Positions 412 to 17,915 of a stretch of 17,915 nt of DNA are shown in pieces (the first letter of the stretch is position 1; each line of letters opens with the position of its first letter). The translations under genes were made by a program, and so were the position numbers. Origin of the DNA: a virus (lineage: Duplodnaviria > Heunggongvirae > Uroviricota > Caudoviricetes); IMG/VR virus record IMGVR_UViG_2703718843_000008; one strand, given 5' to 3'. Under the pieces are notes generated by a model. That model saw nothing but the letters and a program-made list of their open reading frames with translations, had not been told where the DNA came from and did no database searches.

Positions 412-537
412 ATGTCTGCACCTGCACTGCCTGATGTCAGAACAGTATTTTGATGAATTGCCAAGGTTACAATGGCACAAATACGGCACAGGAGGAAACG
501 TGGTGTATTTAAATATGGGGTAACTCTTTGATTTTAA

Positions 538-554
538 TGGTGCCGATAATAGGA
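538..554. repeat. Distal att core: 17-bp direct repeat TGGTGCCGATAATAGGA, identical to 12161..12177 (18 bp identical if 537/12160 is included)
   Basis: Exact repeat seen at both ends of the satellite. The sequence is the reverse complement of the tRNA 3' end (TCCTATTATCGGCACCA). Confidence 0.65.
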
Positions 555-671
555 ATAAAATAAAACGATAACACACTGAAAAATATACAAAAAAGAAACA
601 CACCGTTAAGTAATGCCCCCGAAAATGCCCCCATAATAGATGCCGCAGTAAGTCGACTTGTCCCAAGGACT

Positions 672-714
672 GGTAAGTAATGTCAATAGCGGGAACAAAG
701 AGACATTACTTACC
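672..714. repeat. Perfect 13-bp inverted repeat (GGTAAGTAATGTC / GACATTACTTACC), 17-nt spacer, just downstream of the PRTase gene stop
   Basis: Seen directly. No U-tract follows on either strand, so it is not a canonical intrinsic terminator. Confidence 0.4.
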
Positions 715-734
715 GAGAATGGAATCCATTTAGG

Positions 735-1961: not shown

Positions 1962-1971
1962 TTCATCTTCC

Positions 1972-3036: not shown

Positions 3037-3317
3037 CTTACCGCAGATTTGTGAAGCAACAACATCCCTAGGAGAAACCTTAACCTAGCGGGATAACTTA
3101 CTGACCAATCCTCAGCTAGCTCATTGAATTGCCCCCATATCGCACAGCCCCGCACGCCTGCCCGCTTCGCTTAACAGACTGGTTTTCATGCACCTCATAA
3201 ATCGTCTCAGAAGCCACCAAACAAGGGCTTTCTCGTCAAAAATGGTGCATAAGACTCATGCGTTTTCATGCGCCATAGACATGCACTCATGCGCTCTCAG
3301 GCCAGCCAGGGAAAAGG

Positions 3318-3346
3318 TGTTAAAAATCCCGGTACTCGACCGGGAT
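3318..3346 (-). terminator. Intrinsic terminator of the late (sid-psu-ogr) operon
   Basis: On the minus strand, stem AATCCCGGT / ACCGGGATT with 5-nt loop, followed by TTTTAA; about 20 nt downstream of the ogr-like stop. Confidence 0.55.
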
Positions 3347-3366
3347 TACGTGAGAGTTTTTTCTAA

Positions 3367-3639
3367 TCAGACAGGAATCTGCTGACGGCTTGACAGTTTT
3401 GACGCGGAGCCATAGCGATTGAGCGTTTGCTGTTGTTTTACCAGGGTTTGTGATTTGTCTGGTTCCTGTTCATTGCGCCGGGGTTTCATGATTATCTTAT
3501 CCACACTCTCCAGTGCCGTAAATGTGCAGGAACATTCCAGATTCTGGCACTGATACCACGAGCGTTTAACTGACGGAGCTTCATAGGCTGCTGTTCTGGC
3601 GTGTGCAACTGTACCGCATTCCGGACATTTAAGTGCCAT
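3367..3639 (-). CDS. ogr: Ogr/Delta-family zinc-finger late transcription activator
   Basis: MALKCPECGTVAHARTAAYEAPSVKRSWYQCQNLECSCTFTALESV matches the P2 Ogr / P4 Delta C-x2-C ... C-x4-C pattern. ATG at 3639 is preceded by AGGAG; the ORF-track start at 3648 is a GTG. Confidence 0.85.
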   Translation of the reverse strand: MALKCPECGTVAHARTAAYEAPSVKRSWYQCQNLECSCTFTALESVDKIIMKPRRNEQEPDKSQTLVKQQQTLNRYGSASKLSSRQQIPV

Positions 3640-3644
3640 TAATA

Positions 3645-4196
3645 TCACTCCTGTATATCGTTAATGTCATTCAGGCGTTGCTGAAAACGCAGATGTTGTG
3701 CCGGAGTGTAAGAGCCCTGGCAATCACGAATCATACTGGGGTCAGGCATCAAACCGGATTCATCCAGGATCTCACGATAATCCCCGGCAATTTCAGGCGG
3801 TGTTATTGCCAGCTGGCGAACCAGAGCACTGCGTAATATACGAAACGCAACGTCAACCCCTCCGCGTCCCTTCAGGAACGGAGCCAGTGCAGATGTCAGG
3901 GCTGCCCCATTCGCCTGCATAAAATTGCTGAGAGCGGCTTCTGTGCAGGCCTCCATCAATAAATGCTGCGAGTAAATGCATTCGCGCGCAGCACAGTTAA
4001 TTTGCCATTTCAGCACATCCAGACGTTCCCGCAGTAATTCGAGCTGTCGGGCATAATCTGCTGGTTTTTCTGTGGCAGTGAGGAGAGATGCTATCTGTTG
4101 TTCAACGGCTTTTCGGCTCTCACTATGTCCGGCCCACAGAATACGGGCATTCCGAAAACTGGTAAGTGCCTGGTCAGGTGTGCCTCGGGCCGTCAT
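3645..4196 (-). CDS. psu: Psu-like polarity suppression protein (P4 family)
   Basis: 183 aa. Segments LKWQINCAA ... FMQANGAALTSALAPFLKG ... YTPAQ resemble P4 Psu as I recall it. ATGA overlap with the upstream gene; AAGGAG RBS. Confidence 0.7.
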   Translation of the reverse strand: MTARGTPDQALTSFRNARILWAGHSESRKAVEQQIASLLTATEKPADYARQLELLRERLDVLKWQINCAARECIYSQHLLMEACTEAALSNFMQANGAALTSALAPFLKGRGGVDVAFRILRSALVRQLAITPPEIAGDYREILDESGLMPDPSMIRDCQGSYTPAQHLRFQQRLNDINDIQE

Positions 4197-4936
4197 ACTG
4201 CTTTCTCCTTCTCAGCAAGTTCCTGACGAACCTTTATTTTATGCATAGCTGCCGGAGAGAGTTGATTACTGAAATCCAGACGCGCCGCATAATCCGGGGC
4301 AACTCCCGCCAGTTTAAACACCGGGTCCTGTTCAGGCATCGCATCGTTAGCCAGAGCCGGTCTGGTGATATGTTTATGAATAAAGTCTTTCAGCACTGTG
4401 TCCGGGTCATTAACTGAATTCACCACACCCACAACGGCACTGGCTTCCCGGCCCATTGTGGATTTAAGCAGGCTCAGCGTCTGAATAAGCGCTTTTCCAT
4501 GCGACTGCATAAAATCCTCCCAGATTTGTTTTGCGCGAATATCCACAAGAATGTTATGCGCGTGGATATACTTTCCGGCTAATTCCGCAGCTTTCTGCGG
4601 CAAAAGTGCATTTTCGCTTTCCTGAGCCGCCAGCAGCTCATCAAAATCCTCAAGCGTTTCTCGTCCCAGCGCAATTTCCGTGCGCAGTTTTTTCATTTCC
4701 TTTGAGACCACGCCCTGACTTTCACGAAACAGCGTGCGCCACTCCTCATTCAGTGTATTCGTCGTGGATTCCATTTCAGCGCGGCGCTGGCGGATTGTCG
4801 CAATATTATCCGCTGCCGCTTTCTGCTGACGACGTGCTTCAAGCCATGCGTTTCTGGCTGTGTTCATGGTTTCCAGTGCCCGCTGCGTTACAGCCGGAAA
4901 AGTGGAAAGGTTGTTATTCACTGCGGTGTTGTTCAT
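4193..4936 (-). CDS. sid: Sid-like capsid size determination (external scaffold) protein, putative
   Basis: 247-aa helical, Gln/Glu/Ala-rich protein directly upstream of psu and ogr. Assignment rests on size and position, not a specific motif. Confidence 0.45.
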   Translation of the reverse strand: MNNTAVNNNLSTFPAVTQRALETMNTARNAWLEARRQQKAAADNIATIRQRRAEMESTTNTLNEEWRTLFRESQGVVSKEMKKLRTEIALGRETLEDFDELLAAQESENALLPQKAAELAGKYIHAHNILVDIRAKQIWEDFMQSHGKALIQTLSLLKSTMGREASAVVGVVNSVNDPDTVLKDFIHKHITRPALANDAMPEQDPVFKLAGVAPDYAARLDFSNQLSPAAMHKIKVRQELAEKEKAV

Positions 4937-5114
4937 GACTTCTCCTGTCGGGTTGGTTCGTTACGTCAATTGTGTCGTGGCTGACACAAGCACACTATCG
5001 GTGCTCAGTGTGTGGTGGCTGGCACAACGGGCGCTTGCGGTTATTCAGACGTGGCTATGAAAGCCAGCCAGATAAAAATGCCCACTGTTTCAGTCTGCTT
5101 TATGTCCCTGATGC

Positions 5115-5311
5115 GGTGGAACAGGTGAAACATGTGTTACAGCTTTGTTTTATAAATCATTTATATACACTGCACCGGTGGAACATCGCGGGTAACAAGG
5201 TGGAACAGCGGATTGGCTGGCGTTACATCTGTTCCACCTCACTATTTCAGAAGGTGGAACAGGTTCAGCCCCTGTAAAATACGGTTGTTCCACCTGTTTC
5301 ACCTGTTACCC
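5115..5311. repeat. Iteron cluster with AT-rich tract; putative satellite replication origin / cis replication region
   Basis: At least 7 copies of GGTGGAACA / TGTTCCACC in both orientations (5115, 5177, 5199, 5230, 5253, 5286), plus GGTGAAACA / TGTTTCACC variants and an AT-rich stretch at about 5137..5170, immediately downstream of the primase-helicase gene. Confidence 0.6.
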
Positions 5312-5337
5312 TTAATAAATAAGACTCACGCAAAGCC

Positions 5338-8010
5338 TTAACCCGGCACCTCGCTGTTGAAGACATAGAGCCTGCGGGGATTCATCTCTGGCGGGCGAAT
5401 GGTTGTCTGGAGTTTGCCATCAGTGGAGGGCAGCAGGTATCCACGATCTGCGCACAGACGCGCCACCTTGCGCGGGTCAAATCCCCTGCAGATTTCTTTC
5501 CAGCCGGACGGCATGACATAAAACGTAGTGACAGCTTCCGTGCCCTGCGCGGTACTGCCTTTCTCCACCCTGCGCCAGCCCACCATATTGGCGGGACGGT
5601 TGCGCTCGTCATACCAGTCTGCAAAGCGGCTGTACTGATTCGCGGTAAAGAAACTGCGAACCTGCTCCAGTGCGGCGATATCTTCCTGATTGGCGGTGTG
5701 CCCGCGCTCTTTCAGCCATGCGTTCAGGCAGACGCGGGTTGCCCGCAATGCTTCACCCTCAGGCCAGCCGGTGATACCCAGACGGGTTGCCAGTTCACCT
5801 GCCATCGCCACCAGTGCAAAGCGGTTCACAGCCCGGCCCACCTGATTGCCTGCATCTTTCGGAGTCAGGGCGGCAGCATATTCCTTCATCAGCGATTTTG
5901 CCTGTGCCGTTAGTCCGTTAAGATCAGCGGTCAGTGCTTTCAGCCACTCCCGGAACGGCGAACCGTAGTAGCAGGACGTGGCCCATTCAAGATGCTCTGC
6001 CAGAGCCTTGCCGCTGTCGAAGCCGTGCAGCTCCTCAAAAACGCCAAACTTCCCGGAATCGCTGGGGATCTGGATCATCCTGACTTCCATCCCGGCAAAA
6101 GTACGCTCACCGGCCTTTGCCGCATGTTCGGTCAGAGATAACTCGCCAGTTGAAAAGAACAACAGGCGCCACTGCTTACGGGTACGCAGTTCACCGTCCG
6201 TACCGGCACGACTCTTGCCCTGACCGTTTGCCAGCATGTAGGCGATATTGCCTGCCTCGCGTCCGTCAACTTCCCGGATCTCATCAAGCATCATGGCGGC
6301 ATCGTTGCGGCGGCTGGCACATCCCTCCAGCGCGTTGCCGGTGGCCCGCCATGTCTGCCAGTAGTCAGGCCCGCCGCAGACGGAGGTTGCCGCTTTCATG
6401 GTGGTGGTCTTACCGTCTGTCGATTCCCCTTTGAGGTGGTAGCCGCCGCCGTCCATACCAACCAGCCGTAACAGTGGTGCAGCAAAGGCCAGGCTGACAG
6501 CAAATGCCACGCGGGAGTTGCCGGTACAGTAGCGGGATACGTTCTCCCGCCATTCCTCTGTTGTGCCCGACACGCGGAAATCACGCCCCTGCACGGAAGT
6601 GGTCTGGAGAATGACACCCTCTGCACCTTCACCGCTGACCTCATCCTGCAGGACGTAAACCTGACCATGCCAGCCAGTACGGCTGACGCAGGTCACGCGA
6701 CGTTCCGGTTTACACAGTGAGATATATTCCATCAGGCGTGCGCGTGCCTCACCGGTGGTGCTGATATAAGACAGCCCGTTAACAAGCAGTACCCGGCGCA
6801 GTTCCTCACCACTGCCGCTCAGCATTTCCATCGGCATCGCCCAGCGGCGACGCTCACCCCACGTATCTTCCCATTCCAGCAGTCGTCCGAAGTTACCGCC
6901 ATCGGCATCGCAGGTGATTGCCGTCACGCGCAGCGGGCTGCATATTTTGACGTTCTGGATCTCCGTCTCACCGTTGCGCTGTACCTGCTTTTCATACCAG
7001 AGATATTCCTGGGTAAGACGGAACCCGTGCGGCAGTTGCGTGCGGCCTTCCCCGCACAGTACCAGACCGTTGCGAAAGGCTTCACGGGCACGGGTAATAC
7101 CGTGCTCCCGATGAAAGTCATTCCAGTCAGCCTTAATCTCTCCTGGTGGCAGCGTCATCCAGCCGCCAACAGCTTTTGCCGCCCGTTCAGCAAAGGCTCT
7201 GCCGGGATTCTCCCCCCCGTCCTGAAAATCGTTATCACCGGCGATGATAATTTTTACCTCAGGCCAGCGTGCCCGCAGCGACTGCGCCACATTGGGCAGG
7301 TTGCCCGCAGATATGGCAGCCACTACGCATCCGGCAGTGAGCTGGCTTACCGTCAGCGCCGTAGCGTAACCTTCGGTAATCACCACCTGTACCGGTGGTT
7401 CAGACGGTAACGGGCTGAGCGACACAAACGCGCCTTTCATCGTGCTGCCGGGCAGTATGCTTTTTTCACCCGTCGGGGCGATAAGCTGTGCACCGGTCAC
7501 GGCTCCGGTGTTGGTCGTGAGTGGTAACAGCAGGGAACCGGCAGGAAAATCCTTACCGCTGATATGCTGCACGCTTCCGGTCAGAGAGGCCGGGTATCCG
7601 GCGAACCCTTTTCCTGCCAGATAGGCACTTTCTCCCGTGTGGCTCTCTTTCATCAGCGTCGCCACGGTAAGGCTCATGTCGCGTTTAGGGGCTTTTTGTC
7701 TGGCAGGCTTAACAGGCAGTTCCTGCACATCCGGCACATTAAGCACCTGCGCCACCTGCTGCGCAGCCTTTCTGACGTTGTAGCCGGTTACGAGCTTAAC
7801 CAGATCCAGACCGTCACCATTGCCACACTGGCTGCAGATCCACGTCCCGCGCCCGTCAAGGTCATCGAGGCGAAAACGATCCTTGCCCCCACATTTCGGG
7901 CAGGGACCGTGCCTGCCGTTTTCAGGTACATCAATACGCAGCATATGCAGAATAACGGGCCATTTCCCCCGCGCGGCGGCTGAAATCTGCGTAACCGTCT
8001 GTATTGTCAT
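5338..8010 (-). CDS. P4 alpha-like replicative primase-helicase
   Basis: 890 aa. N-terminal zinc-binding motif CPKCGG ... CSQCG; Toprim-like VVITEGYATA ... IIIAGDND; P-loop GESTDGKTTT. ATGA overlap with the upstream ORF. Confidence 0.9.
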   Translation of the reverse strand: MTIQTVTQISAAARGKWPVILHMLRIDVPENGRHGPCPKCGGKDRFRLDDLDGRGTWICSQCGNGDGLDLVKLVTGYNVRKAAQQVAQVLNVPDVQELPVKPARQKAPKRDMSLTVATLMKESHTGESAYLAGKGFAGYPASLTGSVQHISGKDFPAGSLLLPLTTNTGAVTGAQLIAPTGEKSILPGSTMKGAFVSLSPLPSEPPVQVVITEGYATALTVSQLTAGCVVAAISAGNLPNVAQSLRARWPEVKIIIAGDNDFQDGGENPGRAFAERAAKAVGGWMTLPPGEIKADWNDFHREHGITRAREAFRNGLVLCGEGRTQLPHGFRLTQEYLWYEKQVQRNGETEIQNVKICSPLRVTAITCDADGGNFGRLLEWEDTWGERRRWAMPMEMLSGSGEELRRVLLVNGLSYISTTGEARARLMEYISLCKPERRVTCVSRTGWHGQVYVLQDEVSGEGAEGVILQTTSVQGRDFRVSGTTEEWRENVSRYCTGNSRVAFAVSLAFAAPLLRLVGMDGGGYHLKGESTDGKTTTMKAATSVCGGPDYWQTWRATGNALEGCASRRNDAAMMLDEIREVDGREAGNIAYMLANGQGKSRAGTDGELRTRKQWRLLFFSTGELSLTEHAAKAGERTFAGMEVRMIQIPSDSGKFGVFEELHGFDSGKALAEHLEWATSCYYGSPFREWLKALTADLNGLTAQAKSLMKEYAAALTPKDAGNQVGRAVNRFALVAMAGELATRLGITGWPEGEALRATRVCLNAWLKERGHTANQEDIAALEQVRSFFTANQYSRFADWYDERNRPANMVGWRRVEKGSTAQGTEAVTTFYVMPSGWKEICRGFDPRKVARLCADRGYLLPSTDGKLQTTIRPPEMNPRRLYVFNSEVPG

Positions 8011-8390
8011 ACTTCCCCCTGATACAACGTCACACCAGTACTGCAGAAGTCATCAAAGGTCGCCGGAAGCGTGCGGTACATCTCCGCCATTACTTCACAG
8101 CCGCGCGCGGTCAGTACCGGCGGCGCGGTCAGCAGTGACGGCTCCAGCATGTCAGTCAGCAGTGCCAGCGCGGCAGCGGCGCCCTGTGCTTCGCCGTACT
8201 CGTTAATCAGTGCGCACTCGATATGCAGCGCAATGGCCATTTCAATACGCTCCACCGTCAGGCTGTGCGGACCATACTGATCACTGCCAGTTTCGTTCAG
8301 CATTTTCTGCCGCCATGCTGAAGCAATAGCCCGCCGGTAAAGCGCGGTTGTCATTTCTGCCGGGAAAATGGAAACCTGCGGCTGGTTCAT
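8007..8390 (-). CDS. Hypothetical satellite early-operon protein
   Basis: 127-aa ORF with strong RBS (GAAGGAGGTG); translationally coupled on both sides by ATGA overlaps. Confidence 0.55.
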   Translation of the reverse strand: MNQPQVSIFPAEMTTALYRRAIASAWRQKMLNETGSDQYGPHSLTVERIEMAIALHIECALINEYGEAQGAAAALALLTDMLEPSLLTAPPVLTARGCEVMAEMYRTLPATFDDFCSTGVTLYQGEV

Positions 8391-8671
8391 CTGGCACCTC
8401 CTTCAATCAGTGCACAGCTGTGCGCAATATCCGTCAAATCTGCCCGCAGGTACTCCATCAGCGCGGCGACACCATGCGCACAGCCAGCGTCCAGTGCTCC
8501 GGCCTGAGACGAGTATTCAGAAAAGAGAAGCTGGAGCATGTCGCAGGCATTTCTTGCGCGGGTCAGCTTTCCGAAACTGTCCTCTGACAACCCATAGGCA
8601 AAAGCACCGGTATTGTGTTTTTCAGGCAAAGTGTGGCCCTGAGCACCGTTGTGCCCGTTTGAAATATTCAT
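8387..8671 (-). CDS. Hypothetical satellite early-operon protein
   Basis: 94-aa ORF, ATG start with ACGGAG RBS, ATGA overlap with the downstream gene. Confidence 0.55.
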   Translation of the reverse strand: MNISNGHNGAQGHTLPEKHNTGAFAYGLSEDSFGKLTRARNACDMLQLLFSEYSSQAGALDAGCAHGVAALMEYLRADLTDIAHSCALIEGGAR

Positions 8672-8702
8672 CGTGGATTACTCCGTTTTCAGCGGTATTT
8701 TG

Positions 8703-9062
8703 TCAGAGAAACTTTGAATAGTGACCGTCGTCAGGCTCAGCAGAACGCCGTATGCTACGCTCCCGCCAGCGGATAAATAGCACAGACGGATGCAGTGTCA
8801 GCGGGCCGGAACCACTACCGCCTGCAGGAGCTGGTGCAGGCTTAAAGAGCGGTACATCAAACAGGCGCGTATACCGCTGTTCAAACCATGCCAGAGGGCA
8901 GGAAGAAAGCTGGTTGTCGCTGTCATGACGTATCAGCACTTCACAGCTGAATTCAGGATTAACCAGCGCCACAGAGGGCGAGGCTTCAATTAATCGGATA
9001 ATCGTGACCGTCCAGCCACGTTCATGCTGCCAGCGTTCGCCGGGGTGCGGATAATTACGCAT
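8703..9062 (-). CDS. Hypothetical satellite early-operon protein
   Basis: ORF-track start at 9092 is a TTG; the ATG at 9062 (MRNYPHPGERW...) is preceded by GGAGGTG and is the likelier start. Confidence 0.5.
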   Translation of the reverse strand: MRNYPHPGERWQHERGWTVTIIRLIEASPSVALVNPEFSCEVLIRHDSDNQLSSCPLAWFEQRYTRLFDVPLFKPAPAPAGGSGSGPLTLHPSVLFIRWRERSIRRSAEPDDGHYSKFL

Positions 9063-9231
9063 GTTCACCTCCGCAGGGAATGCGCCCGGCAAAGCTCAGT
9101 ACATAATCCGGGGCAAGTCTGCGCCGCGCTGACCGCTCGTTATCTGCGGTGATCCTTAACATCACAGGACGGGCATTGCGTTGACTGCGGTTGATCGCCG
9201 CAAATAACCAGGTACACTTCTGTTTAGCCAT
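9055..9231 (-). CDS. Small hypothetical protein (58 aa), first gene of the leftward operon
   Basis: ATG with AAGAGGT RBS; MAKQKCTWLFAAINRSQRNARPVMLRITADNERSARRRLAPDYVLSFAGRIPCGGEHA. Below the 60-aa ORF-track cutoff. Stop overlaps the next gene's start. Confidence 0.4.
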   Translation of the reverse strand: MAKQKCTWLFAAINRSQRNARPVMLRITADNERSARRRLAPDYVLSFAGRIPCGGEHA

Positions 9232-9320
9232 CTTCGTTACCTCTTATAACGGTTGGTTAAATGCCCGATTTGTGTTCCCGCACAATCGGGCATTGCTTTT
9301 ACAAGCGAACTATACTTACA

Positions 9321-9365
9321 ATGGTAATTACCATGTAGTCATCATATTCTAGGGTAATTACCATG
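9321..9365. promoter_or_regulatory. Two palindromic operator-like sites in the divergent promoter region
   Basis: ATGGTAATTACCAT (9321..9334, perfect 14-bp palindrome) and GGTAATTACC (9353..9362). The second overlaps the ATG of the ribbon-helix-helix gene. Confidence 0.5.
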
Positions 9366-9536
9366 TCAACACCACAAGAGAAACGTTCCCCACCATTCCA
9401 AATGCGTCTTACCGACGATTTTAGGTTGCAACTCGAAAAAGAAATGCGCAAAGATGGAGATAGCGCGTTGGCAACTTGGATTAAAAGAATTTTACGTAAA
9501 GAACTACAATCACGCGGGATTGACCCTAAAGGTTAA
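9363..9536 (+). CDS. Arc/Mnt-like ribbon-helix-helix repressor (57 aa)
   Basis: PPFQMRLTDDFRLQLEKEMRKDG-DSALATWIKRILRKEL follows the beta-strand/helix/helix pattern of Arc-type repressors. Divergent from the early operon. Not in the ORF track (under 60 aa). Confidence 0.55.
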   Translation: MSTPQEKRSPPFQMRLTDDFRLQLEKEMRKDGDSALATWIKRILRKELQSRGIDPKG

Positions 9537-9568
9537 TCAGTTAAATATTACTAACTATCAATTAAGGC

Positions 9569-9859
9569 TTAGGGAGTAGGTGATAATCTATTCCCTTTAT
9601 TAATTGCTCTTGCCTTATTTCTCATCCCCTCAAACTGTTGACCTGAGTTTTCTTCAAACCCATCTCGCCACTTATAATAATCAGCAGCGCGCCATCGGGA
9701 CATCCGACCTATTTTTATAGGTTTTGGAAAGCGATTCAGAGAAATCAATCGATAAATCCATTTGTCACTTAATAAACAATCGGAAGTAATAAACTTCATA
9801 TCGATCAGAGAATCCATTGAAGGTCGTTGCAAAGTAGTATTATCATGTTTAGATAACAT
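9569..9859 (-). CDS. AlpA/Vis-family HTH protein (excisionase or regulator)
   Basis: 96 aa; IYRLISLNRFPKPIKIGRMSRWRAADYYKW matches the AlpA-type pattern (FP-P-I-G ... W ... W). GGAG RBS. Confidence 0.75.
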   Translation of the reverse strand: MLSKHDNTTLQRPSMDSLIDMKFITSDCLLSDKWIYRLISLNRFPKPIKIGRMSRWRAADYYKWRDGFEENSGQQFEGMRNKARAINKGNRLSPTP

Positions 9860-9984
9860 TCATCATTCTCCGTTTATCTAAGTCTATTGGCTTCAACACG
9901 GAAAATTAAAACATAGGTTATAAATGAGAAAAATGTGACTAATGAAAAAAATCCAAAATCATTAGTCACAATAATTGTTAACAT

Positions 9985-10809
9985 TTAGTTAAACTTAATG
10001 TTTTTCATGCAACTACGTAGCAAGCTAACAACAGTATCATAGCTCAAAGGTGGTTCTCCGGTCTTAGGCCAGAACTCACTGGCATGTTGAAAAAGATAAT
10101 CAGCTATCGCTGCTGGACTCTCTCTTCTTAGCCTCATATCACGATGATAGAGCGAAATAATAGCCATGAGTATTTCAGTTCGAGGAACAGCATGTTTTTG
10201 TTTTTGCGCCTCAGATTGTGATTTATATTTATTGGCGTTTTTTATCCGTTTTTGTTCGCATAAGACTATATCAATGAATTTTTGAATCTGTACCTTTGTA
10301 ATCCACAAAACCTCAAAAAGATAATAATTTTCTTTTTCATCATAATTTACATAAAGAATTACCTTACAATTTATATTAGGCGTACCCGCCAGTAGAAAAT
10401 GAATAGGCCAGGAATCCGGTTGCCCCTCATGCTTAACTAACAGATCTTTATATTCATAATCAACAGCCCATAAACCGGATATAAAGCATCGAATAAAACC
10501 ATTTTTATCAATTAAATTATTTTCATCAGGGATTCTTATAGAGCTTAAGTCTGACAACATAATATTGCCATTTCTATCTCGTGGTAAATATTTCAGATTA
10601 GATAAGAACTCATCCATTTGACCATCAATCTTCAAACCACATGAAACATCATACTCATCATCATGGAATTCCATGCATAGCTCTACATCTCGTTCTCTGG
10701 CAAACCAGAGTATATCCTTTTCACTACAACCAATTTTTTCTGAAGCTTCATCCAACTGGTAGTAATCTCTGAGCAGAGAATCAGTATTATTAATTTTTAA
10801 AATATTCAT
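9985..10809 (-). CDS. Hypothetical protein, AT-rich orphan cargo gene translationally coupled to the integrase
   Basis: 274-aa ORF whose ATG overlaps the integrase stop (ATGA). Marked AT-rich codon usage; no motif I can recognise. Confidence 0.65.
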   Translation of the reverse strand: MNILKINNTDSLLRDYYQLDEASEKIGCSEKDILWFARERDVELCMEFHDDEYDVSCGLKIDGQMDEFLSNLKYLPRDRNGNIMLSDLSSIRIPDENNLIDKNGFIRCFISGLWAVDYEYKDLLVKHEGQPDSWPIHFLLAGTPNINCKVILYVNYDEKENYYLFEVLWITKVQIQKFIDIVLCEQKRIKNANKYKSQSEAQKQKHAVPRTEILMAIISLYHRDMRLRRESPAAIADYLFQHASEFWPKTGEPPLSYDTVVSLLRSCMKNIKFN

Positions 10810-11996
10810 TTATGAGTACCAATTAGCTCAGATAAATAATTAGCATACCATTGCATCATTTCTCTTCTCCCTTCGAGATATTGGGCATGGTTATAAATTC
10901 CACGAATAGAGTTTTTGTCCGAATGAGCAAGCTGGGTTTCAATCCAAGCGCTGTTAAATCCTTTCTCATGTAGAATTGTACTCATCGTATGCCTGAAACC
11001 ATGTCCCGTAACACGCCCTGCATATCCAATACGTTTAAACACCTGATTGATGCTTGCTTCACTCATAAATTTGCTAGGATCGTTGCGTCCAGGGAACATC
11101 AGCGGGTAGTTCCCAGTTAGTTCTTTCAAACTTTTGAGATGGGATAATGCTTGTTTTGGTAACGGGACAATATGGCTCCTACGCATTTTCATACGTTCTT
11201 TTGGGATCTCCCACACCGCATTATCAAAATCCACCTCTCGCCACTCACCTGCTCGTAGTTCTCCAGTTCGTAGACCTGTCAGGATAAGTAAATGCGCCCC
11301 CAACAATACAATTGGACTTCCTGAATAAGAATTAAGGGCATTAAAGAACTCCGGTAGTTCGTTGGCTTTGAGGAATGGATAGTGGACTGCTTCATGTCCT
11401 TGCATCGCACTGGCAAGATCCGGTGCCGGATTGTAGATTGCCCTACCCGTTACGATGGCATAGCGAAAAACTTCACCGCATCGCTGACGGACTTTCTTCG
11501 CTTTCTCCATAGCGCCTCGAGCTTCTATCAACCTCAGAACTTCAAGCAGTTCAAGGGGCTGAATATCAGCTATAGGTCTGTGCCCAATATGCGGAAAAAT
11601 GTCTTTCTCAAATGCCTCAATGATGTCGGAAGCATAGCCCTCAGACCATTTGGATGATTTCATTTTGTGCCACTCTAACGCCACTTCTCTGAATGGGTTA
11701 AGTGTCTCAATCGCTGCGTTTAAAGCCTGCTTTTTGGCTTTTTTGACTTCGCCGGGATCTTCACCTGCTGCGAGTAGTTTCTTTGCGTCTTCTCGTTTTT
11801 GTCTGGCATCAGCAAGTGTGACTGTTGGATAAACACCAAAGGACAATCGTTTCTCTTTACCAGCAAAACGGTATTTCATACGCCAGTAACGCGAGCCATT
11901 AGGTTCGACCTGAAGGTATAGGCCACCTCCATCAAACAGCTTATAGCTCTTCTCTTTTCCTTTCGCAGCTTCAACCTTGCGGGCATTCAGCATCAT
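10806..11996 (-). CDS. int: P4-type tyrosine integrase
   Basis: N-terminus KSYKLFDGGGLYLQVEPNGSRYWRMKYRFAGKEKRLSFGVYP is typical of P4-family integrases; C-terminal catalytic residues HGFRHT ... Y. ORF-track start at 12065 is a TTG; ATG at 11996 or 11993 (MMLNARKVE) fits the family N-terminus better. Confidence 0.9.
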   Translation of the reverse strand: MMLNARKVEAAKGKEKSYKLFDGGGLYLQVEPNGSRYWRMKYRFAGKEKRLSFGVYPTVTLADARQKREDAKKLLAAGEDPGEVKKAKKQALNAAIETLNPFREVALEWHKMKSSKWSEGYASDIIEAFEKDIFPHIGHRPIADIQPLELLEVLRLIEARGAMEKAKKVRQRCGEVFRYAIVTGRAIYNPAPDLASAMQGHEAVHYPFLKANELPEFFNALNSYSGSPIVLLGAHLLILTGLRTGELRAGEWREVDFDNAVWEIPKERMKMRRSHIVPLPKQALSHLKSLKELTGNYPLMFPGRNDPSKFMSEASINQVFKRIGYAGRVTGHGFRHTMSTILHEKGFNSAWIETQLAHSDKNSIRGIYNHAQYLEGRREMMQWYANYLSELIGTHK

Positions 11997-12160
11997 TGGG
12001 GGCACATTTCCTAGACCGAACAGAACATGCCCCTGATTGTGCCCCCAACCGCGTGTTGATTTCAAGAGACAAGGGTTGACCTCAAACGTATGAAAACAAC
12101 GTAATATATATGTTTTTAAATGATTTTGTTGATGTGGGTTGACTTGGGAAAACTAGGTGA

Positions 12161-12209
12161 TGGTGCCGATAATAGGAGTCGAACCTACGACCTTCGCATT
12201 ACGAATGCG
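12161..12209 (-). pseudogene. ptwF: Partial tRNA-Thr(CGU) gene, 3' 49 nt only (thrW-like att remnant)
   Basis: Minus strand reads CGCATTCGTAATGCGAAGGTCGTAGGTTCGACTCCTATTATCGGCACCA: anticodon stem-loop with CGT anticodon, T-arm (GGTTCGACTCC), acceptor 3' strand and CCA. No D-arm or 5' acceptor strand upstream. The symbol is my recollection of the K-12 name. Confidence 0.75.
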
Positions 12210-12318
12210 ATGTTAATGCATTTTTAACTACTTGAGCAATCAATCAAAACAACATACTTTATATTATAAAACACCAAGTTATAGCAATAAACCCGTTGAT
12301 TGAAATTAACAAAAGTTG

Positions 12319-13719
12319 ATGTTTATTCCCTCCATTTACTTACACCAGCAGTTACATTATTGTAAGACAGCAATTCTCAACTGGAGCCGAAAAATGGCGC
12401 TTTCAAGACAAAAATTTACCTTCGAAAGACTTCGCAGATTCACCTTACCGGAAGGGAAAAAACAAACTTTTCTTTGGGATGCAGATGTAACAACCCTGGC
12501 ATGCCGAGCAACTAGCGGAGCAAAAGCCTTTGTATTCCAAAGCGTATATGCGGGGAAAACCCTTCGCATGACTATTGGCAACATTAACGACTGGAAGATT
12601 GATGATGCGAGAGCCGAGGCAAGACGGTTACAAACATTGATCGATACAGGGATAGATCCACGAATTGCTAAGGCTGTAAAAATCGCAGAAGCAGAATCCC
12701 TGCAGGCAGAATCACGTAAAACAAAAGTGACTTTCTCCGTCGCCTGGGAAGACTATCTTCAAGAATTGAGAACCGGTATCAGTGCAAAAACTAAACGCCC
12801 ATATTCTACTCGATACATTGCCGATCACATTAACTTGTCCAGTCGTGGAGGCGAAAGTAAAAAAAGAGGCCAAGGCCCGACTTCGGCTGGACCATTGGCT
12901 AGTTTGCTCAACCTGCCGTTATCGGAGCTAACCCCAGATTACATAGCAGCGTGGCTGAGTACAGAAAGGCAAAATAGACCTACCGTCACTGCTCACGCTT
13001 ATCGCCTACTACGTGCTTTCATCAAATGGAGTAATTATCAGAAAAAATATCAAGGGATCATTCCTGGCGATCTGGCACAAGATTACAACGTAAGAAAAAT
13101 GGTTCCCGTGTCAGCGAGTAAAGCTGATGATTGCCTGCAAAAGGAACAACTAAAAAGCTGGTTTAGTGCCGTGCGTAGCCTCAATAATCCTATTGCATCG
13201 GCCTATCTCCAAGTACTTTTGCTCACTGGTGCTCGGCGTGAAGAAATTGCGTCGCTTCGCTGGTCAGACGTAGATTTCAAATGGTCAAGCATGCGAATTA
13301 AAGACAAGATCGAAGGTGAACGTATCATCCCTCTCACTCCTTATGTTTCTGAATTGTTAAATGTACTAGCGCAATCCCCAAATTCTGACGTAAATAAGGA
13401 GGGTTGGGTTTTCAGAAGTAACAGTAAAAGTGGCAAAATTATTGAGCCGCGTTCAGCGCACAACAGAGCGTTAGTGCTGGCTGAGTTACCACATATCAGC
13501 CTTCACGGTTTACGTCGTAGTTTTGGTACTTTGGCCGAGTGGGTTGAAGTTCCCACTGGTATTGTTGCTCAAATTATGGGACACAAACCCAGCGCTCTTG
13601 CCGAAAAACACTATCGCCGTCGTCCGTTAGATCTGTTACGAAAATGGCACGAGAAAATTGAGACATGGATCTTAAATGAAGCAGGTATTACCATAAAAAA
13701 CAACGTTGATATGCGTTGA
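12319..13719 (+). CDS. intF: Tyrosine integrase of the neighbouring cryptic prophage
   Basis: Tyrosine recombinase motifs LLLTGARREE ... HGLRRSFGT ... GHKPSALAEKHY. First ATG at 12319 gives 466 aa (ORF-track start 12316 is a TTG). Confidence 0.85.
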   Translation: MFIPSIYLHQQLHYCKTAILNWSRKMALSRQKFTFERLRRFTLPEGKKQTFLWDADVTTLACRATSGAKAFVFQSVYAGKTLRMTIGNINDWKIDDARAEARRLQTLIDTGIDPRIAKAVKIAEAESLQAESRKTKVTFSVAWEDYLQELRTGISAKTKRPYSTRYIADHINLSSRGGESKKRGQGPTSAGPLASLLNLPLSELTPDYIAAWLSTERQNRPTVTAHAYRLLRAFIKWSNYQKKYQGIIPGDLAQDYNVRKMVPVSASKADDCLQKEQLKSWFSAVRSLNNPIASAYLQVLLLTGARREEIASLRWSDVDFKWSSMRIKDKIEGERIIPLTPYVSELLNVLAQSPNSDVNKEGWVFRSNSKSGKIIEPRSAHNRALVLAELPHISLHGLRRSFGTLAEWVEVPTGIVAQIMGHKPSALAEKHYRRRPLDLLRKWHEKIETWILNEAGITIKNNVDMR

Positions 13720-13835
13720 TTCCATTAAAAATCAACATATTACAAAATATCATCAACTATTGATCAAGATAGATTTTCATGTATCGTAATACACAGTTTA
13801 GTCAATGATACAGCAACTACACAGGAGATAAGCCA

Positions 13836-14276
13836 ATGGCAACCCCAGCAACTGTATCCATAGAACCCACTCTGGCAGCTATCAGAGCTCGCTGGTGTAT
13901 TAATTCAAGTAAAACAACTCAATCCTTTAACGATCCTGCGTCCATGGAAGAGGTTGTCGAGTATCTCAAAGGAACATACTCAGCTCTTCGCAAGTCTGTC
14001 GCATGCGCCAAACTGAAAATTTTACATCTTAAACAAAGAATGCAAAATGCTACTAACTTTCTCGCGCGTCTGATGTCATGTAAAAATCAGGCATCCAGAT
14101 CGCATCACAGTACGGCTAAATCAGCTAAAAGTGCCTTATCATCAGATTCAGGTGATGGTAGTGACCCCGACCCCGAGCCCGAAACGTTTCCTTCTGCCTT
14201 CATTACTACCCCTACTAATTCAATAATGCTTAAAGCTTTCTTTGCCAATATCTCAATCACTGAGGTGGCAAAATGA
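13836..14276 (+). CDS. yagN: Hypothetical prophage protein
   Basis: 146-aa ORF, AGGAG RBS, Ser-rich acidic C-terminal region. Symbol from recollected size and context only. Confidence 0.6.
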   Translation: MATPATVSIEPTLAAIRARWCINSSKTTQSFNDPASMEEVVEYLKGTYSALRKSVACAKLKILHLKQRMQNATNFLARLMSCKNQASRSHHSTAKSAKSALSSDSGDGSDPDPEPETFPSAFITTPTNSIMLKAFFANISITEVAK

Positions 14277-14497
14277 GCGCATTCAAACTCCCGGATACAT
14301 CTCAATCACAGCTCATTTCAACAGCTGAGTTAGCTAAAATCATTAGCTACAAATCTCAAACCATTCGTAAATGGCTTTGTCAGGACAAATTGCCTGAGGG
14401 GCTACCTCGCCCAAAACAAATCAATGGCCGCCATTACTGGTTACGTAAAGATGTCCTCGATTTTATAGATACATTTTCTGTACGAGAAAGTCTGTAA
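14273..14497 (+). CDS. Small HTH protein, AlpA/excisionase-like
   Basis: 74 aa, GAGGTGG RBS, start overlaps the upstream stop (ATGA). LISTAELAKIISYKSQTIRKWL ... INGRHYWLRKDVLDFI. Confidence 0.55.
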   Translation: MSAFKLPDTSQSQLISTAELAKIISYKSQTIRKWLCQDKLPEGLPRPKQINGRHYWLRKDVLDFIDTFSVRESL

Positions 14498-14615
14498 TAA
14501 ATTACAGATTTAATTTTATTGATTTATAGCGATGTTGCCCCGAGAAAAATGGGGCAACACTGAGAAATTTCAGATAGTAGTTTTATATTGAGATAACAAA
14601 GAGGTTTCCTTAAAA

Positions 14616-15470
14616 ATGTCTAATAGTGTTACTAATTTTGAGATGAGCAGCGTTCTACCAGGAAAAAAACCTTGTCAAGGCAAAAACAATGAGTCACAGG
14701 TAGTACAGACTACTCCCATAAAAAAACACTCAGTCACGTTCAAAAATCAATCTTCATTAGGAGTAATTGATCATTATGCCAGACTAACAAATAAATCTCA
14801 CTCTTCCGTAATAGCGGAAGTTGTGGATTTGGCTATCCCTATATTAGAAAAATGCAATCGTCATAACTGGTCAATAAATGAAATAAAAAATGACCTGTTA
14901 AAGTTCTCTATAAAAGAAAGCATCAATCGAAGCCGAGGTAAAACAGAAGTAACTCTGGAAGAGTACTGTTCGTTAATCTGGAAAACGAACATCATGAGTC
15001 CATTAAAAATCCCCATTGCAGATTACTTTCAACTGAACGCTAATGATGAATTCATGGGGAAAGATGAAAAAACAGTTATACGTGAAAGGCTATCCTCGCT
15101 AAGGGAAAATTACGATATGGAAAAAGCCATTTACATTTACAATCAAAGACATTTTGATGTAAAGCATCAAAGTGTCTCAGGATATTCAAACATTATTCTT
15201 ATTCATAGAACAACCTTTGAGGGTTATTACTTTGATGCCGGGCAGGCTCTACTCTTGTCAACATCCCAATTGATTATATTCGGGATAAATGAAGTTCTTA
15301 GAAGAAAGGGGATTGTTATGCCTTATCCGGTTGTTTGTTGGATTGATATTTACCATGTCAATGAAATGGTGGTTATGCTGCCAGTGCTCCGCAAAACAGA
15401 TGTTTCCAACCGTGTTAATGTACCGGATGACATCATTATAAACCCATACTCACAAGAGAGCAGAACCTAA
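14616..15470 (+). CDS. yagM: Hypothetical prophage protein
   Basis: 284-aa ORF, AAAGAGG RBS, AT-rich. Symbol from recollected size and context only. Confidence 0.65.
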   Translation: MSNSVTNFEMSSVLPGKKPCQGKNNESQVVQTTPIKKHSVTFKNQSSLGVIDHYARLTNKSHSSVIAEVVDLAIPILEKCNRHNWSINEIKNDLLKFSIKESINRSRGKTEVTLEEYCSLIWKTNIMSPLKIPIADYFQLNANDEFMGKDEKTVIRERLSSLRENYDMEKAIYIYNQRHFDVKHQSVSGYSNIILIHRTTFEGYYFDAGQALLLSTSQLIIFGINEVLRRKGIVMPYPVVCWIDIYHVNEMVVMLPVLRKTDVSNRVNVPDDIIINPYSQESRT

Positions 15471-15496
15471 GAGGTAACAAAGAAGGACAAACAATT

Positions 15497-16195
15497 ATGA
15501 GAGGTAAAATACTACTTTACCAGTTAAAGTATCGCTGGCAATCACTCTCTATTTTTGGTTGTTTTTTATGCAAAATGACATTATTCAGGTATCAAAAAAT
15601 AATTTATGACACCGGAGTGCATCAGATGCGTTCATTTTTTTACACCATATGCAGTAGCGAACAGCAAGAAAGCATTACAGATCATCACTCACTTGCTGAG
15701 ATATGCCAAAAATTTAATATTCTACCTGAACATGTTGTGATCGAGCAGGTAGATATTAAAGAGGTTGTTTCAGAGCAACGTTTACTCAGACAATTGATTC
15801 ATCATGAAATGAACCGGCAGGACACGCTTGTCATTCCAGATCTAAGCTGTCTTGGCAGAACTGTGGAGGACTTACAGAATATTTTATTTTTTTGCCTTCA
15901 AAAAGAAATGTTTATCTACAGCTACCATCCAGCTTCAAGGATAGAGCCTTCTGCTGAAAGTTGCTTGTCTTTTTTGATTGCTCGTCAGGATACGATTGAC
16001 ATTCACAATCTGAAATCAACTAAAAGCCGATATCGACATGTTAAGAAGAAATTAGGACGAAAGGAGGGAAGCAAATACCGACGTGATATCACAATACTTA
16101 AGAAAGGTGGATTTACTCAGGCTGAGATTGCAAAGAAATTGAGTATCAGTTTATCGACTGTGAAGCGGCACTGGAATAACGGAATCATCGGTTAA
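15497..16195 (+). CDS. yagL: Serine-recombinase-like protein with C-terminal HTH, probably catalytically degenerate
   Basis: Internal MRSFFYTICSSEQQ aligns with the resolvase N-terminus MRxFGYARVSTxQQ (Ser kept, the conserved Arg is Ile). C-terminal HTH GGFTQAEIAKKLSISLSTVKRHW. 232 aa. Confidence 0.65.
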   Translation: MRGKILLYQLKYRWQSLSIFGCFLCKMTLFRYQKIIYDTGVHQMRSFFYTICSSEQQESITDHHSLAEICQKFNILPEHVVIEQVDIKEVVSEQRLLRQLIHHEMNRQDTLVIPDLSCLGRTVEDLQNILFFCLQKEMFIYSYHPASRIEPSAESCLSFLIARQDTIDIHNLKSTKSRYRHVKKKLGRKEGSKYRRDITILKKGGFTQAEIAKKLSISLSTVKRHWNNGIIG

Positions 16196-16299
16196 TTCCA
16201 GAAGCTAATTGCAGAGTAACTTTTTAACAGCCATCACAGGCTGGGGCTACCTTCGTCTCAAATTTAGATGTTGGATAGGTATTATATAATGGCATTGTG

Positions 16300-16444
16300 T
16301 ACTCTTACTACCTGTATTCACCAGTAAGAGTAGTAATCAGATCAGTATGTCCGTACTAAAATCTGATACCAGTATATACCGACAACAGTGACCAGGAATA
16401 GCCCTGCCTGTATGGCATCCCTGTACGGTCTGCTATAGACCGTA
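16300..16444. repeat. Structured intergenic region with several inverted repeats and CCTGTA motifs
   Basis: 10-bp IR TACTCTTACT / AGTAAGAGTA (16300..16332); 7-bp IR ATCAGAT / ATCTGAT (16336..16367); hairpin TACGGTCT-gctat-AGACCGTA (16424..16444); CCTGTA(T/C) at 16311, 16407, 16419 and its complement at 16453. Confidence 0.4.
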
Positions 16445-16466
16445 GGACCAAATACAGGTATATATT

Positions 16467-17093
16467 ATGAAAACATATCAAGGTACTCATGGAGTACATA
16501 TCCTCGAATATCAGAGTAAGATTAATAAATTATTATGTTATTTGACTAACCGGTATCCTAGGTTAATTGCTGTACGTGTCGATCTCCACTATCCCAAAAT
16601 AGTTGATAACGGTGACAATATCTGTTGCTTCCCTAACCTGGAACCTGGGGTGATATCCCGGATGCGTGAATCCCTCAGAGCTAAGCTGGAGGCTGACCGT
16701 ACCCGTAAGGTGCGTGAGGATAAACGCATTTACCGTTGCCCTTTATTTATTATATGGGCGAAAGAGTATTCTGAATCAGGTAAATGCCACTATCACATTT
16801 GCCTGTTGTTCAACAAAGACGCTTACTACCACCTCGGGGATTACGATCAGGACGATAACCTTAGAGGGATGATCACAGGAGCCTGGTACAGCGCCCTGAG
16901 ACTGGAGAGAGACGATCACCCTGGTCTGGTCCATTTTCCTGAAAACTGTAAGTATGTGCTAGACACCAATAGTACTGACTTCCAGCAGAACTACCAGGCG
17001 CTGTTAACCCGACTGGACTACCTGACCAAAGTTGAAAGCAAAGTGTTTGGTGAAGGAGACCGTAACTTCGGCTGTAGCCAAATCGAACTGTAA
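16467..17093 (+). CDS. yagK: YagK/YfjJ-family prophage protein
   Basis: 208-aa ORF with AGGT RBS. Sequence recalls the YagK/YfjJ family found in E. coli cryptic prophages (recollection, unverified). Confidence 0.7.
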   Translation: MKTYQGTHGVHILEYQSKINKLLCYLTNRYPRLIAVRVDLHYPKIVDNGDNICCFPNLEPGVISRMRESLRAKLEADRTRKVREDKRIYRCPLFIIWAKEYSESGKCHYHICLLFNKDAYYHLGDYDQDDNLRGMITGAWYSALRLERDDHPGLVHFPENCKYVLDTNSTDFQQNYQALLTRLDYLTKVESKVFGEGDRNFGCSQIEL

Positions 17094-17102
17094 GTCGGTA
17101 AT

Positions 17103-17138
17103 GGCCTTCTCAGTGAGAAGGCCTTATTTGTATTGTTT
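17103..17138 (+). terminator. Intrinsic terminator downstream of the yagK-like gene
   Basis: Stem GGCCTTCT / AGAAGGCC with loop CAGTG, followed by TTATTTGTATTGTTT; 10 nt after the stop. Confidence 0.6.
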
Positions 17139-17183
17139 CAAAAAATTACTAAAATGCAGTTTCGTTACGCAATTTTCTATAGA

Positions 17184-17915
17184 TTACTGATAGTCATCAG
17201 CAAGTCCGCTACTAAATAACGTTTCTGCATTTTCAGCGGTAGCAACAGCATCCTGCACATCCTGCCGTTTCAAATCTAACACTCGTAATTTACCCTTTAC
17301 TTCGGCGACAGATTCGATTCGCCTGTAAGCATCAGAATGATGTTCGGCATATAGCGCAAGTCCTTCCAGTTTGGGCAAAGCATCAGCCAGATGTAGGCTA
17401 TGTGGATCTACCAGGTCCACAACCATTTTGCCATCCTGTTCGGCAAAGAACAGGAAATCGGGACGAACAATCTTGTACTGTTCAGCTTCAACATAAGCGA
17501 TTCCCAGTGACGACTGCCCTGTGTACTGTGGATTACGATACCAGAAAGCAAATCCTTCACGTTTGGTTTCGATCTCAAAAACCTTGGTTTCCCAATGGTT
17601 CAACAGAGCCGGATAGTTCCCGCTTTCGTCACACAACAAATGGTGTTTCCAGACTGGAAGGTCAGCTTCCTTTTCACCTTCACGCACCCTGGTCATTTCA
17701 AACTTGTTCGCCGGCCTGACCAGATCCACATCCTGCGGTTCGGTACTCATTTCGACGATTTGACGATAGGCCTCTTTACGCTCATCTTTCAACGACTTGA
17801 TTTGCGGTGTGTACTCGGCCAGCCACGCCTTCGCCAGTCTATCGGCCTCGCCATCGAAGTAATCCTGCACCTCCATCACCAGCCCCATGCCAGCAACGGT
17901 AACACGAGCCTCCAT
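17184..17915 (-). CDS. yagJ: Hypothetical protein; reaches the window edge, so possibly truncated at the N-terminus
   Basis: 243-aa ORF convergent with the yagK-like gene. The ATG sits exactly at the window end, so the true start could lie outside. Symbol from recollected size and context only. Confidence 0.5.
   Translation of the reverse strand: MEARVTVAGMGLVMEVQDYFDGEADRLAKAWLAEYTPQIKSLKDERKEAYRQIVEMSTEPQDVDLVRPANKFEMTRVREGEKEADLPVWKHHLLCDESGNYPALLNHWETKVFEIETKREGFAFWYRNPQYTGQSSLGIAYVEAEQYKIVRPDFLFFAEQDGKMVVDLVDPHSLHLADALPKLEGLALYAEHHSDAYRRIESVAEVKGKLRVLDLKRQDVQDAVATAENAETLFSSGLADDYQ

Follow-up and report, generated by a model that had tools for sequence, protein, structure and literature searches.

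Organization of the locus

The window, by which is meant the whole stretch of 17,915 nucleotides that was analysed, joins a short segment of Escherichia coli chromosome to a P4-like satellite, a fragment of the tRNA gene thrW and the right end of CP4-6. Its features are the following.

1-411, plus strand: yagP', C-terminal fragment of a LysR-family regulator (Pfam LysR_substrate; 99.8% identity to the K-12 locus)
412-536: native chromosomal flank, originally after thrW (contiguous with the thrW remnant in K-12)
537-554: distal 18-bp core ATGGTGCCGATAATAGGA, the satellite attR core (exact repeat of 12160-12177)
555-12159, minus strand: P4-like satellite (Pfam domain matches; 99.67% identity to the PSJ-36 element)
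735-3036, minus strand: ShosTA defence/toxin-antitoxin cargo of the satellite (PADLOC; Pfam DNA_processg_A)
735-1961, minus strand: ShosT, PRTase-like toxin (PADLOC, 308.8 bits)
1972-3036, minus strand: ShosA, DprA-like (PADLOC, 300.4 bits)
9569-9859, minus strand: small HTH protein, candidate excisionase, AlpA/Vis-like (Pfam Phage_AlpA, 20.6 bits; phrog_66, 29.6 bits)
10806-11996, minus strand: satellite tyrosine integrase, 396 aa (Pfam Arm-DNA-bind_3, Phage_int_M, Phage_integrase)
11997-12159: satellite arm beside the core, upstream region of the integrase gene (conserved at 99-100% in 65 genomes)
12160-12177: proximal 18-bp core, the satellite attL core (within the tRNA fragment)
12161-12209, minus strand: thrW 3' fragment (positions 28-76), ptwF of K-12 (exact identity to K-12 thrW)
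12210-12237, minus strand: CP4-6-derived stretch loosely mimicking the 5' half of a tRNA (Rfam match; ARAGORN negative)
12319-13719, plus strand: intF, CP4-6 integrase, 466 aa (Pfam Arm-DNA-bind_3, Phage_integrase; K-12 identity)
13836-17915, plus strand except yagJ: CP4-6 right-end genes (K-12 and PD7 identity; Pfam and PHROG matches)
13836-14276, plus strand: yagN, CP4-6 right end
14273-14497, plus strand: ykgV, HTH_17, candidate excisionase (Pfam; weak phrog_66 match)
between ykgV and yagJ, plus strand: yagM, yagL and yagK, CP4-6 right end
17184-17915, minus strand: yagJ, CP4-6 right end

The segment at 12161-12209 is the exact 3' 49 nt of E. coli thrW, the gene for tRNA-Thr(CGU). Its reverse complement, CGCATTCGTAATGCGAAGGTCGTAGGTTCGACTCCTATTATCGGCACCA, matches positions 28-76 of K-12 thrW with no differences, and the match ends at position 27, where the window has T and thrW has G. 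A 25-mer of the segment is present in the window as a single copy and was recovered in none of 200 shuffles; the same 49-nt fragment is found at the equivalent place in K-12, PD7 and MB52. A first-pass annotation made from the sequence had held that only the 3' 49 nt of a tRNA-Thr(CGU) gene are present, and that they lie between two intact tyrosine integrases (10806-11996, minus strand; 12319-13719, plus strand). Both statements were borne out, the first by the exact match to thrW and by ARAGORN, which reports no gene there, and the second by the coordinates, the Pfam domains and the catalytic Arg, His-x-x-Arg, His and Tyr motifs, which can be read in the translations of the satellite integrase and IntF alike. 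At the other end of the window, yagP', whose counterpart in K-12 is annotated as an incomplete LysR gene, belongs to the chromosomal backbone beyond the thrW integration hotspot.

The locus almost certainly comprises two integrative elements arrayed in tandem at the thrW hotspot. Read in the orientation of the tRNA gene, the complete array would run from thrW (beyond the contig) through CP4-6, intF, the 49-nt thrW fragment, the satellite and the 18-bp fragment to the native flank and yagP', with the satellite entered at its integrase and left at its ShosTA cargo.

The fragment corresponds to ptwF of K-12, which we take to be a thrW pseudogene annotated at the CP4-6 attachment site. It is a known K-12 gene, and thrW-as and ptwF-as have been listed as parallel antisense transcripts (PMC13170351). 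For K-12 ptwF-as, a TadA-dependent A-to-I editing site was reported that could not be validated by Sanger sequencing (PMC13170351). The antisense of the anticodon arm of the fragment (window 12195-12209, plus strand), CGCA-UUACGAA-UGCG, mimics tRNA-Arg2's anticodon arm; this is the intF strand, and in the window the sequence upstream of the arm is replaced by satellite DNA.

The P4-like satellite

Domain searches with Pfam recovered an integrase, an AlpA-like HTH protein, a primase with Zn_Ribbon_Prim, Toprim_3 and DUF927 domains, Psu (183 aa), a Psu-like protein (247 aa) and Ogr_Delta, and the core genes of a P4-like satellite are therewith present, the AlpA match being weak. The Phage_AlpA score of the protein encoded at 9569-9859 falls just below the cut-off; its match in the PHROG collection, phrog_66, is described as 'excisionase and transcriptional regulator', and a homologue in PEC1003 is annotated as 'AlpA family'. 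The integrase gene lies immediately downstream of the tRNA fragment and is co-oriented with it. Among phage proteins, its product is closest to the integrases of P22-like phages (~49% identity), and it resembles IntF in only two short stretches (26-31% identity).

Cargo is carried at the end of the satellite away from the integrase gene, where ShosT and ShosA form a pair; in the same position, related satellites at thrW in MB52 and MFDS1022581 carry Drt3a/b. Only a single contig, LOOK01000009.1, is recorded as encoding this exact ShosT protein.

At the opposite end, the motif GGGTTGAC occurs twice in the satellite arm (12073 and 12136) and has three matches in the window against 0.40 expected; it is a candidate arm-type integrase site. 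The motif ATGCCCC was also considered for this role and was rejected, its count in the window not being above chance. Copies of ATGCCCC cluster at both ends of the satellite and are conserved in A1.

Several further repeats were observed within the satellite. An exact 14-nt direct repeat, GGTAATTACCATGT, at window 9323-9336 and 9353-9366 (30-nt spacing, partly palindromic), is intergenic and upstream of the AlpA-like gene, and may be an operator. The same regulatory intergenic region also matches the Rfam model of the SymR antitoxin RNA weakly (9226-9297, plus strand; 31.6 bits, gathering score 61, E = 0.014); the match is probably due to chance, but could mark a region encoding a small immunity RNA. 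Direct repeats of 16 nt resembling TGTGGTGGCTGGCACA, together with 33-nt inverted repeats, were located at 4973-5026, 5112-5307 and 6306-6321; the cluster lies just 3' of the primase gene and before the Psu-like gene, with one more copy within the primase gene, and the repeats may be of replication-origin type.

The right end of CP4-6

To the right of the satellite, the window is 100% identical to K-12 over 12160-13400 and 99.95% identical over 12160-16400 (4,241 nt); over 12160-17915 it is 99.98% identical to PD7 (5,756 nt). Identity and gene order thus both assign this segment to the right end of CP4-6. The intF gene is divergent from the tRNA fragment, and K-12 intF is equal in length and position to the open reading frame at 12319-13719. 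A search of phage proteins yielded no close relative of IntF. Excision of CP4-6 has been recorded in K-12 at 0.3-1.5 per 10^5 cells (PMC4632033), and IntF and the fragment are therefore functional in that strain.

The junctions and the unoccupied site

A K-12-type chromosome (strain CIT, locus L001) aligns with the window in two blocks, 1-554 (99.8%; L001 2465-3018, which there adjoins the remnant) and 12160-16400 (99.95%), and the two alignments overlap by exactly 18 bp, which is the direct repeat that bounds the satellite. The repeat, ATGGTGCCGATAATAGGA, is made up of the final 17 nt of thrW and one flank nucleotide. It was identified by this alignment of both window ends to K-12; a generic repeat finder did not list it, and a search for a longer repeat, using a 25-mer with 3 mismatches allowed, gave one copy only. 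The junction in K-12, read directly, is ...TTGATTTTA-ATGGTGCCGATAATAGGA-GTCGAACC...GCG-ATGTTAATG...intF. In the window, the left junction passes from K-12 flank through ATGGTGCCGATAATAGGA (537-554) into satellite DNA, and the right junction passes from satellite DNA through ATGGTGCCGATAATAGGA (12160-12177) into the remainder of the fragment and on to intF. The insert together with one copy of the core amounts to 11,623 bp (~11.6 kb).

The first-pass annotation had predicted that in genomes lacking the satellite the tRNA remnant would have the LysR fragment as its direct neighbour on one side and the second integrase on the other. This is the arrangement in K-12, where yagP', the 49-nt remnant and intF follow one another without interruption, at ~99.8-100% identity to the flanks in the window, and the same unoccupied junction was recovered from 308 of 5,426 complete genomes. 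The difference between the two states is thus that K-12 continues from the fragment into native flank and yagP', whereas in the window the 11.6-kb satellite follows the last nucleotide of the fragment; on the CP4-6 side, the fragment, the adjacent tRNA-like sequence, intF and yagN-yagJ are 99.95-100% identical in the two. An intact thrW had also been anticipated further to the right: it was found 25 kb away in an analogous complete genome, MB52, and K-12 has an intact thrW too.

One fragment, two sites

The fragment is the core region of CP4-6 attR, and its 3' end is the core of the satellite attL; the sequences involved differ in extent. When K-12 thrW is compared with the fragment, identity extends from tRNA position 28 through the end of the gene and 11 nt beyond it, and this block of 60 bp (49 + 11) is the attL/attR repeat of CP4-6. 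Starting on the 5' strand of the anticodon stem, it fits, as an identity block, the anticodon-centred class of integrase sublocations (PMC4383910, citing Williams 2002). The 18-bp block of the satellite, in contrast, comprises only the 3' strand of the T-stem, the acceptor strand and CCA, and fits the T-stem/acceptor sublocation.

The crossover within the 18-bp block can be narrowed further by a single indel. The distal core carries a 1-nt deletion (ATGGTG-CGATAATAGGA) in PSJ-36 (locus L005, ~3735) and MB52 (L002, ~4278), in both of which the tRNA-proximal copy, be it in thrW or in the fragment, is intact; the distal core is perfect in the window (537-554) and in MFDS1022581. Its occurrence with two different satellites and on two flank haplotypes suggests that the deletion is element-borne, in which case the satellite crossover would fall 3' of that position, within the final ~6 nt. 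With crossover positions derived in this way from the identity blocks and one indel, the satellite crossover likely falls at about 12160-12166 and that of IntF at about 12199-12205, in the anticodon loop, some 39 nt apart. In several of the K-12-type junctions surveyed, 118 nt of the record correspond to 119 nt of the query, and a deletion of this kind is perhaps common at the hotspot.

The proposal that the two islands share one att must accordingly be divided: the tRNA fragment is common to both elements, whereas the att core is not, the identity blocks (60 and 18 bp) and the likely crossovers being distinct. IntF would use the anticodon-arm part of the fragment together with CP4-6 DNA as its attR, and the satellite integrase would use the last 18 nt together with satellite DNA as its attL.

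These assignments bear on excision, which was considered from the anatomy of the sites and the lambda/P4 paradigm. Because arm-binding domains are present in the two integrases, excision should require element DNA beside both partner cores. For IntF, the pair would consist of thrW joined to the left end of CP4-6 and the CP4-6 right end joined to the fragment; for the satellite integrase, it would consist of the fragment joined to the integrase end of the satellite and the cargo end joined to the 18-bp copy. Since each element has a complete pair of sites of its own, each should be capable of excising independently. Excision by IntF would leave thrW followed by the satellite, as in PSJ-36, and excision of the satellite would restore the K-12 arrangement. 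Composite excision products, which had been raised as a possibility, are not favoured, as the satellite integrase would have to pair the 18-bp copy with an intact thrW that lacks the satellite arm. Nor did the suggested cross-talk between AlpA-like factors find support: the proteins encoded at 9569-9859 and by ykgV both match phrog_66 weakly, but have no significant similarity to each other.

Satellites at thrW in complete genomes

The context of the array was surveyed in 5,426 complete E. coli genomes using junction-specific queries composed of the integrase-side arm of the satellite and the thrW 3' segment; the counts given are of genomes and not of independent events. The satellite arm was found at thrW in 84 genomes, of which 51 have it at the intact gene (proA side) and about 33 beside a fragment that has been displaced. 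When the exact protein sequence of the satellite integrase was used as the query, all contexts recovered were thrW-proA except for one other array.

The elements that displace the fragment are varied. An IntF-type island together with a satellite is present in the complete genomes MB52, Ec-U7 and 1008S13; a partner of the type seen in MFDS1022581, which leaves a 46-nt fragment, was found in 17 genomes; PEC1003 has a partner whose integrase is 357 aa long and whose fragment measures 48 nt; and a further partner element is present in AP027408. In PK8277, the partner leaves only 18 nt. In the arrays with a fragment of 46-49 nt, the satellite always lies away from the intact thrW, with at least six types of partner and no reversed case. 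The satellite was beside a K-12-type intF in none of the 5,426 complete genomes, and the exact pair is known from one draft contig. Another element has made use of the CP4-6 fragment in PD7 (locus L016, 2819-3950), where a lambdoid prophage (yfdP-yfdT, with a 372-aa integrase toward the att site) is located at the identical 49-nt sequence.

The position of the satellite on the far side of its partners fits the later arrival of the partners, and satellites that prefer the fragment would give it as well. That thrW-targeting P4-like satellites choose a displaced fragment over the intact, transcribed tRNA gene when both are available seems unlikely to us; candidate causes of such a preference are transcription through the target or the cost of rewriting the 3' end and trailer of the tRNA. 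If the preference were real, position in an array would be set by integrase sublocation and the state of the target, and order would be no simple record of history.

Order of insertion

Taken as a whole, including the order of events, the reading that we consider probable is that the locus is a two-element array in which CP4-6 was resident first and the satellite came second. With CP4-6 in place, its attR fragment would still hold an intact target for the satellite integrase, this retained target agreeing in sequence with intact thrW between position 28 and the eleventh nucleotide past the gene, and the satellite would integrate there by site-specific recombination, duplicating 18 bp. The first-pass annotation had likewise placed the satellite in the att core of an older cryptic prophage. 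The CP4-6 fragment, the empty site in K-12 and the insert bounded by 18 bp all agree with that placement; the greater age of the prophage is likely. Insertion order cannot be read from the junctions, since the IntF-type crossover lies upstream of the satellite crossover and both orders give identical sequence.

The opposite history has a smaller, though still substantial, probability. It would have the satellite enter thrW first and CP4-6 insert later into the anticodon arm, or else would have the array present in a shared ancestor, with loss of the satellite in K-12 and PD7. In the reverse order, CP4-6 would displace the original 3' 49 nt with the satellite attached, and the product would be equal base for base. 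The starting state would be that of PSJ-36, where a satellite 99.67% identical to that in the window is present at intact thrW in a chromosome without CP4-6. Several observations are in keeping with this history: CP4-6 is proficient in excision; in all of the approximately 33 genomes with a displaced fragment, the partner separates the satellite from the intact gene, as predicted if partners arrive later; and among the 51 satellites at intact thrW there is no genome with another thrW fragment of at least 46 nt. K-12, moreover, is not necessarily ancestral, because precise excision of the satellite would recreate the K-12 site. Against this history stands the distribution of CP4-6 itself. Its right ends, at least 99.95% identical, are found with three distal states, namely empty (K-12, 308 genomes), a lambdoid prophage (PD7) and the satellite (window), which would call for several independent integrations of a degenerate 34-kb element or for several losses of the satellite; in addition, the unoccupied K-12-type junction is present in 308 genomes against one that is occupied. 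Parsimony thus modestly favours insertion of CP4-6 first over insertion of the satellite first.

That the array was created by assembly, with the end of CP4-6 mis-joined through a 50-nt repeat to a satellite that in fact resides at intact thrW, is very improbable. The sequence does come from a draft assembly (LOOK01000009.1, GCA_001575435.1), the contig ends 272 nt past the window, and an exact 50-nt repeat is present; but the other end of the satellite joins the yagP' flank cleanly, so that, given CP4-6 at thrW, only the observed order is consistent, and complete genomes with several partner islands show an equivalent architecture. Assemblers normally break at unresolved repeats and do not join across them. 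Window positions 1-6961 are matched by LOOK01000009.1 at 100%, and the intact thrW would lie beyond the end of the contig; since only 272 nt of contig follow yagJ, the window lacks a link to the remainder of CP4-6 and to the intact thrW. In PD7, yagJ is followed by IS1, and the break in the contig is probably at an IS copy.

In the preferred reading, with CP4-6 resident before the satellite, ptwF acts as a live landing pad for at least two other types of element, the satellite in the window and the lambdoid prophage in PD7. When two integrases differ in the sublocation that they use within a tRNA gene, the sequence of arrival cannot be read from the arrangement of the elements.

The tRNA-like sequence at the fragment

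A complete tRNA gene is what the Rfam model RF00005 would appear to report, with a full-length match at 12164-12237 on the minus strand (model positions 1-71) scoring 45.5 bits, the gathering score being 29. This match arises because the 28 nt at 12210-12237, immediately 5' of the fragment, are loosely tRNA-like and adjoin a perfect 3' two-thirds. These nucleotides are not thrW sequence; they provide a D-stem of 4 bp and only five of the seven acceptor pairs, and random AT-rich 28-mers reach the same tRNA-likeness in ~1% of cases. ARAGORN detected no tRNA gene in the window or at the homologous loci of other strains, even with settings relaxed for a CGU anticodon, and the finding that had been named as fatal to the fragment reading, a full tRNA gene in other strains, did not materialize. 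The possibility that the segment belongs to a complete, functional tRNA gene can be dismissed despite the Rfam score, as only 49 of 76 nt match thrW, two of the seven acceptor positions do not pair, the D-loop lacks the conserved GG, ARAGORN is negative, and miscalls of integration-derived tRNA fragments by covariance models have been documented (PMC9897764); we judge the Rfam match to be a fragment-driven miscall of that kind.

The stretch at 12210-12237 (K-12 locus L001, 3050-3077) resembles a decayed tRNA 5' half, and may be the relic of an attP that was tRNA-like throughout or a coincidence; the IntF-variant island of MB52 has only partial similarity to it. A related annotation was encountered in PEC1003 (locus L019, 4356-4467), where RefSeq places a 112-nt 'tRNA-Ser' over the 48-nt thrW fragment and island DNA and ARAGORN finds nothing; the call looks like an annotation error arising from an integration fragment. 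A RefSeq 'tRNA-Ser' at the thrW hotspot is also annotated in GPEC60-12-649, S51 and PRO_A-1551-6M-A_ESBL, the sequence having been read for PEC1003 only.

Comparison with known elements and arrays

P4 takes leuX as its integration target. The satellite in the window differs from P4 in its use of thrW in place of leuX and in its integrase, which is nearest to those of P22-like phages. It is similar to P4 and P4-like satellites in its size of ~11.6 kb and in its gene set (PMC8628076; PMC9122126), and, like the P4-like satellites with a psu-int defence hotspot, it carries variable cargo beside an att end (PMC9122126). Tandem P4-like elements have been noted earlier (PMC8628076), and a search of the literature found no paper joining thrW with P4-like satellites.

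As integration restores the core at both ends of an element, a second element may enter either copy (PMC7192596), and Islander lists 125 tandems among 3,919 islands, a tandem being defined by one integrase and one tRNA-gene fragment per member (PMC4383910). In the window, each member has its own integrase (the satellite integrase and IntF) and its own fragment in tRNA orientation, of 49 nt for CP4-6 and 18 bp for the satellite, on the same strand, and an unoccupied reference site is available for the inner junction. The boundaries of two elements that island-finders could merge are thereby fixed exactly, and an Rfam tRNA match is traced to a fragment and not to a gene. The array also illustrates that a single fragment can be the attR of one element and the attL of the next without a common crossover site.

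The pair formed by K-12-type CP4-6 and this ShosTA satellite sets this array apart from those known, in being absent from the 5,426 complete E. coli genomes. The arrays of PD7, MFDS1022581, PEC1003 and PK8277 make similar use of the same hotspot, with different partners and integrases. Compared with the tandem arrays described by Islander and TIGER (Hudson et al. 2015, PMC4383910; Mageeney et al. 2020, PMC7192596), the present one shows no difference in kind: tandem arrays at tRNA genes are well documented, and the locus is a new instance of ordinary stacking.
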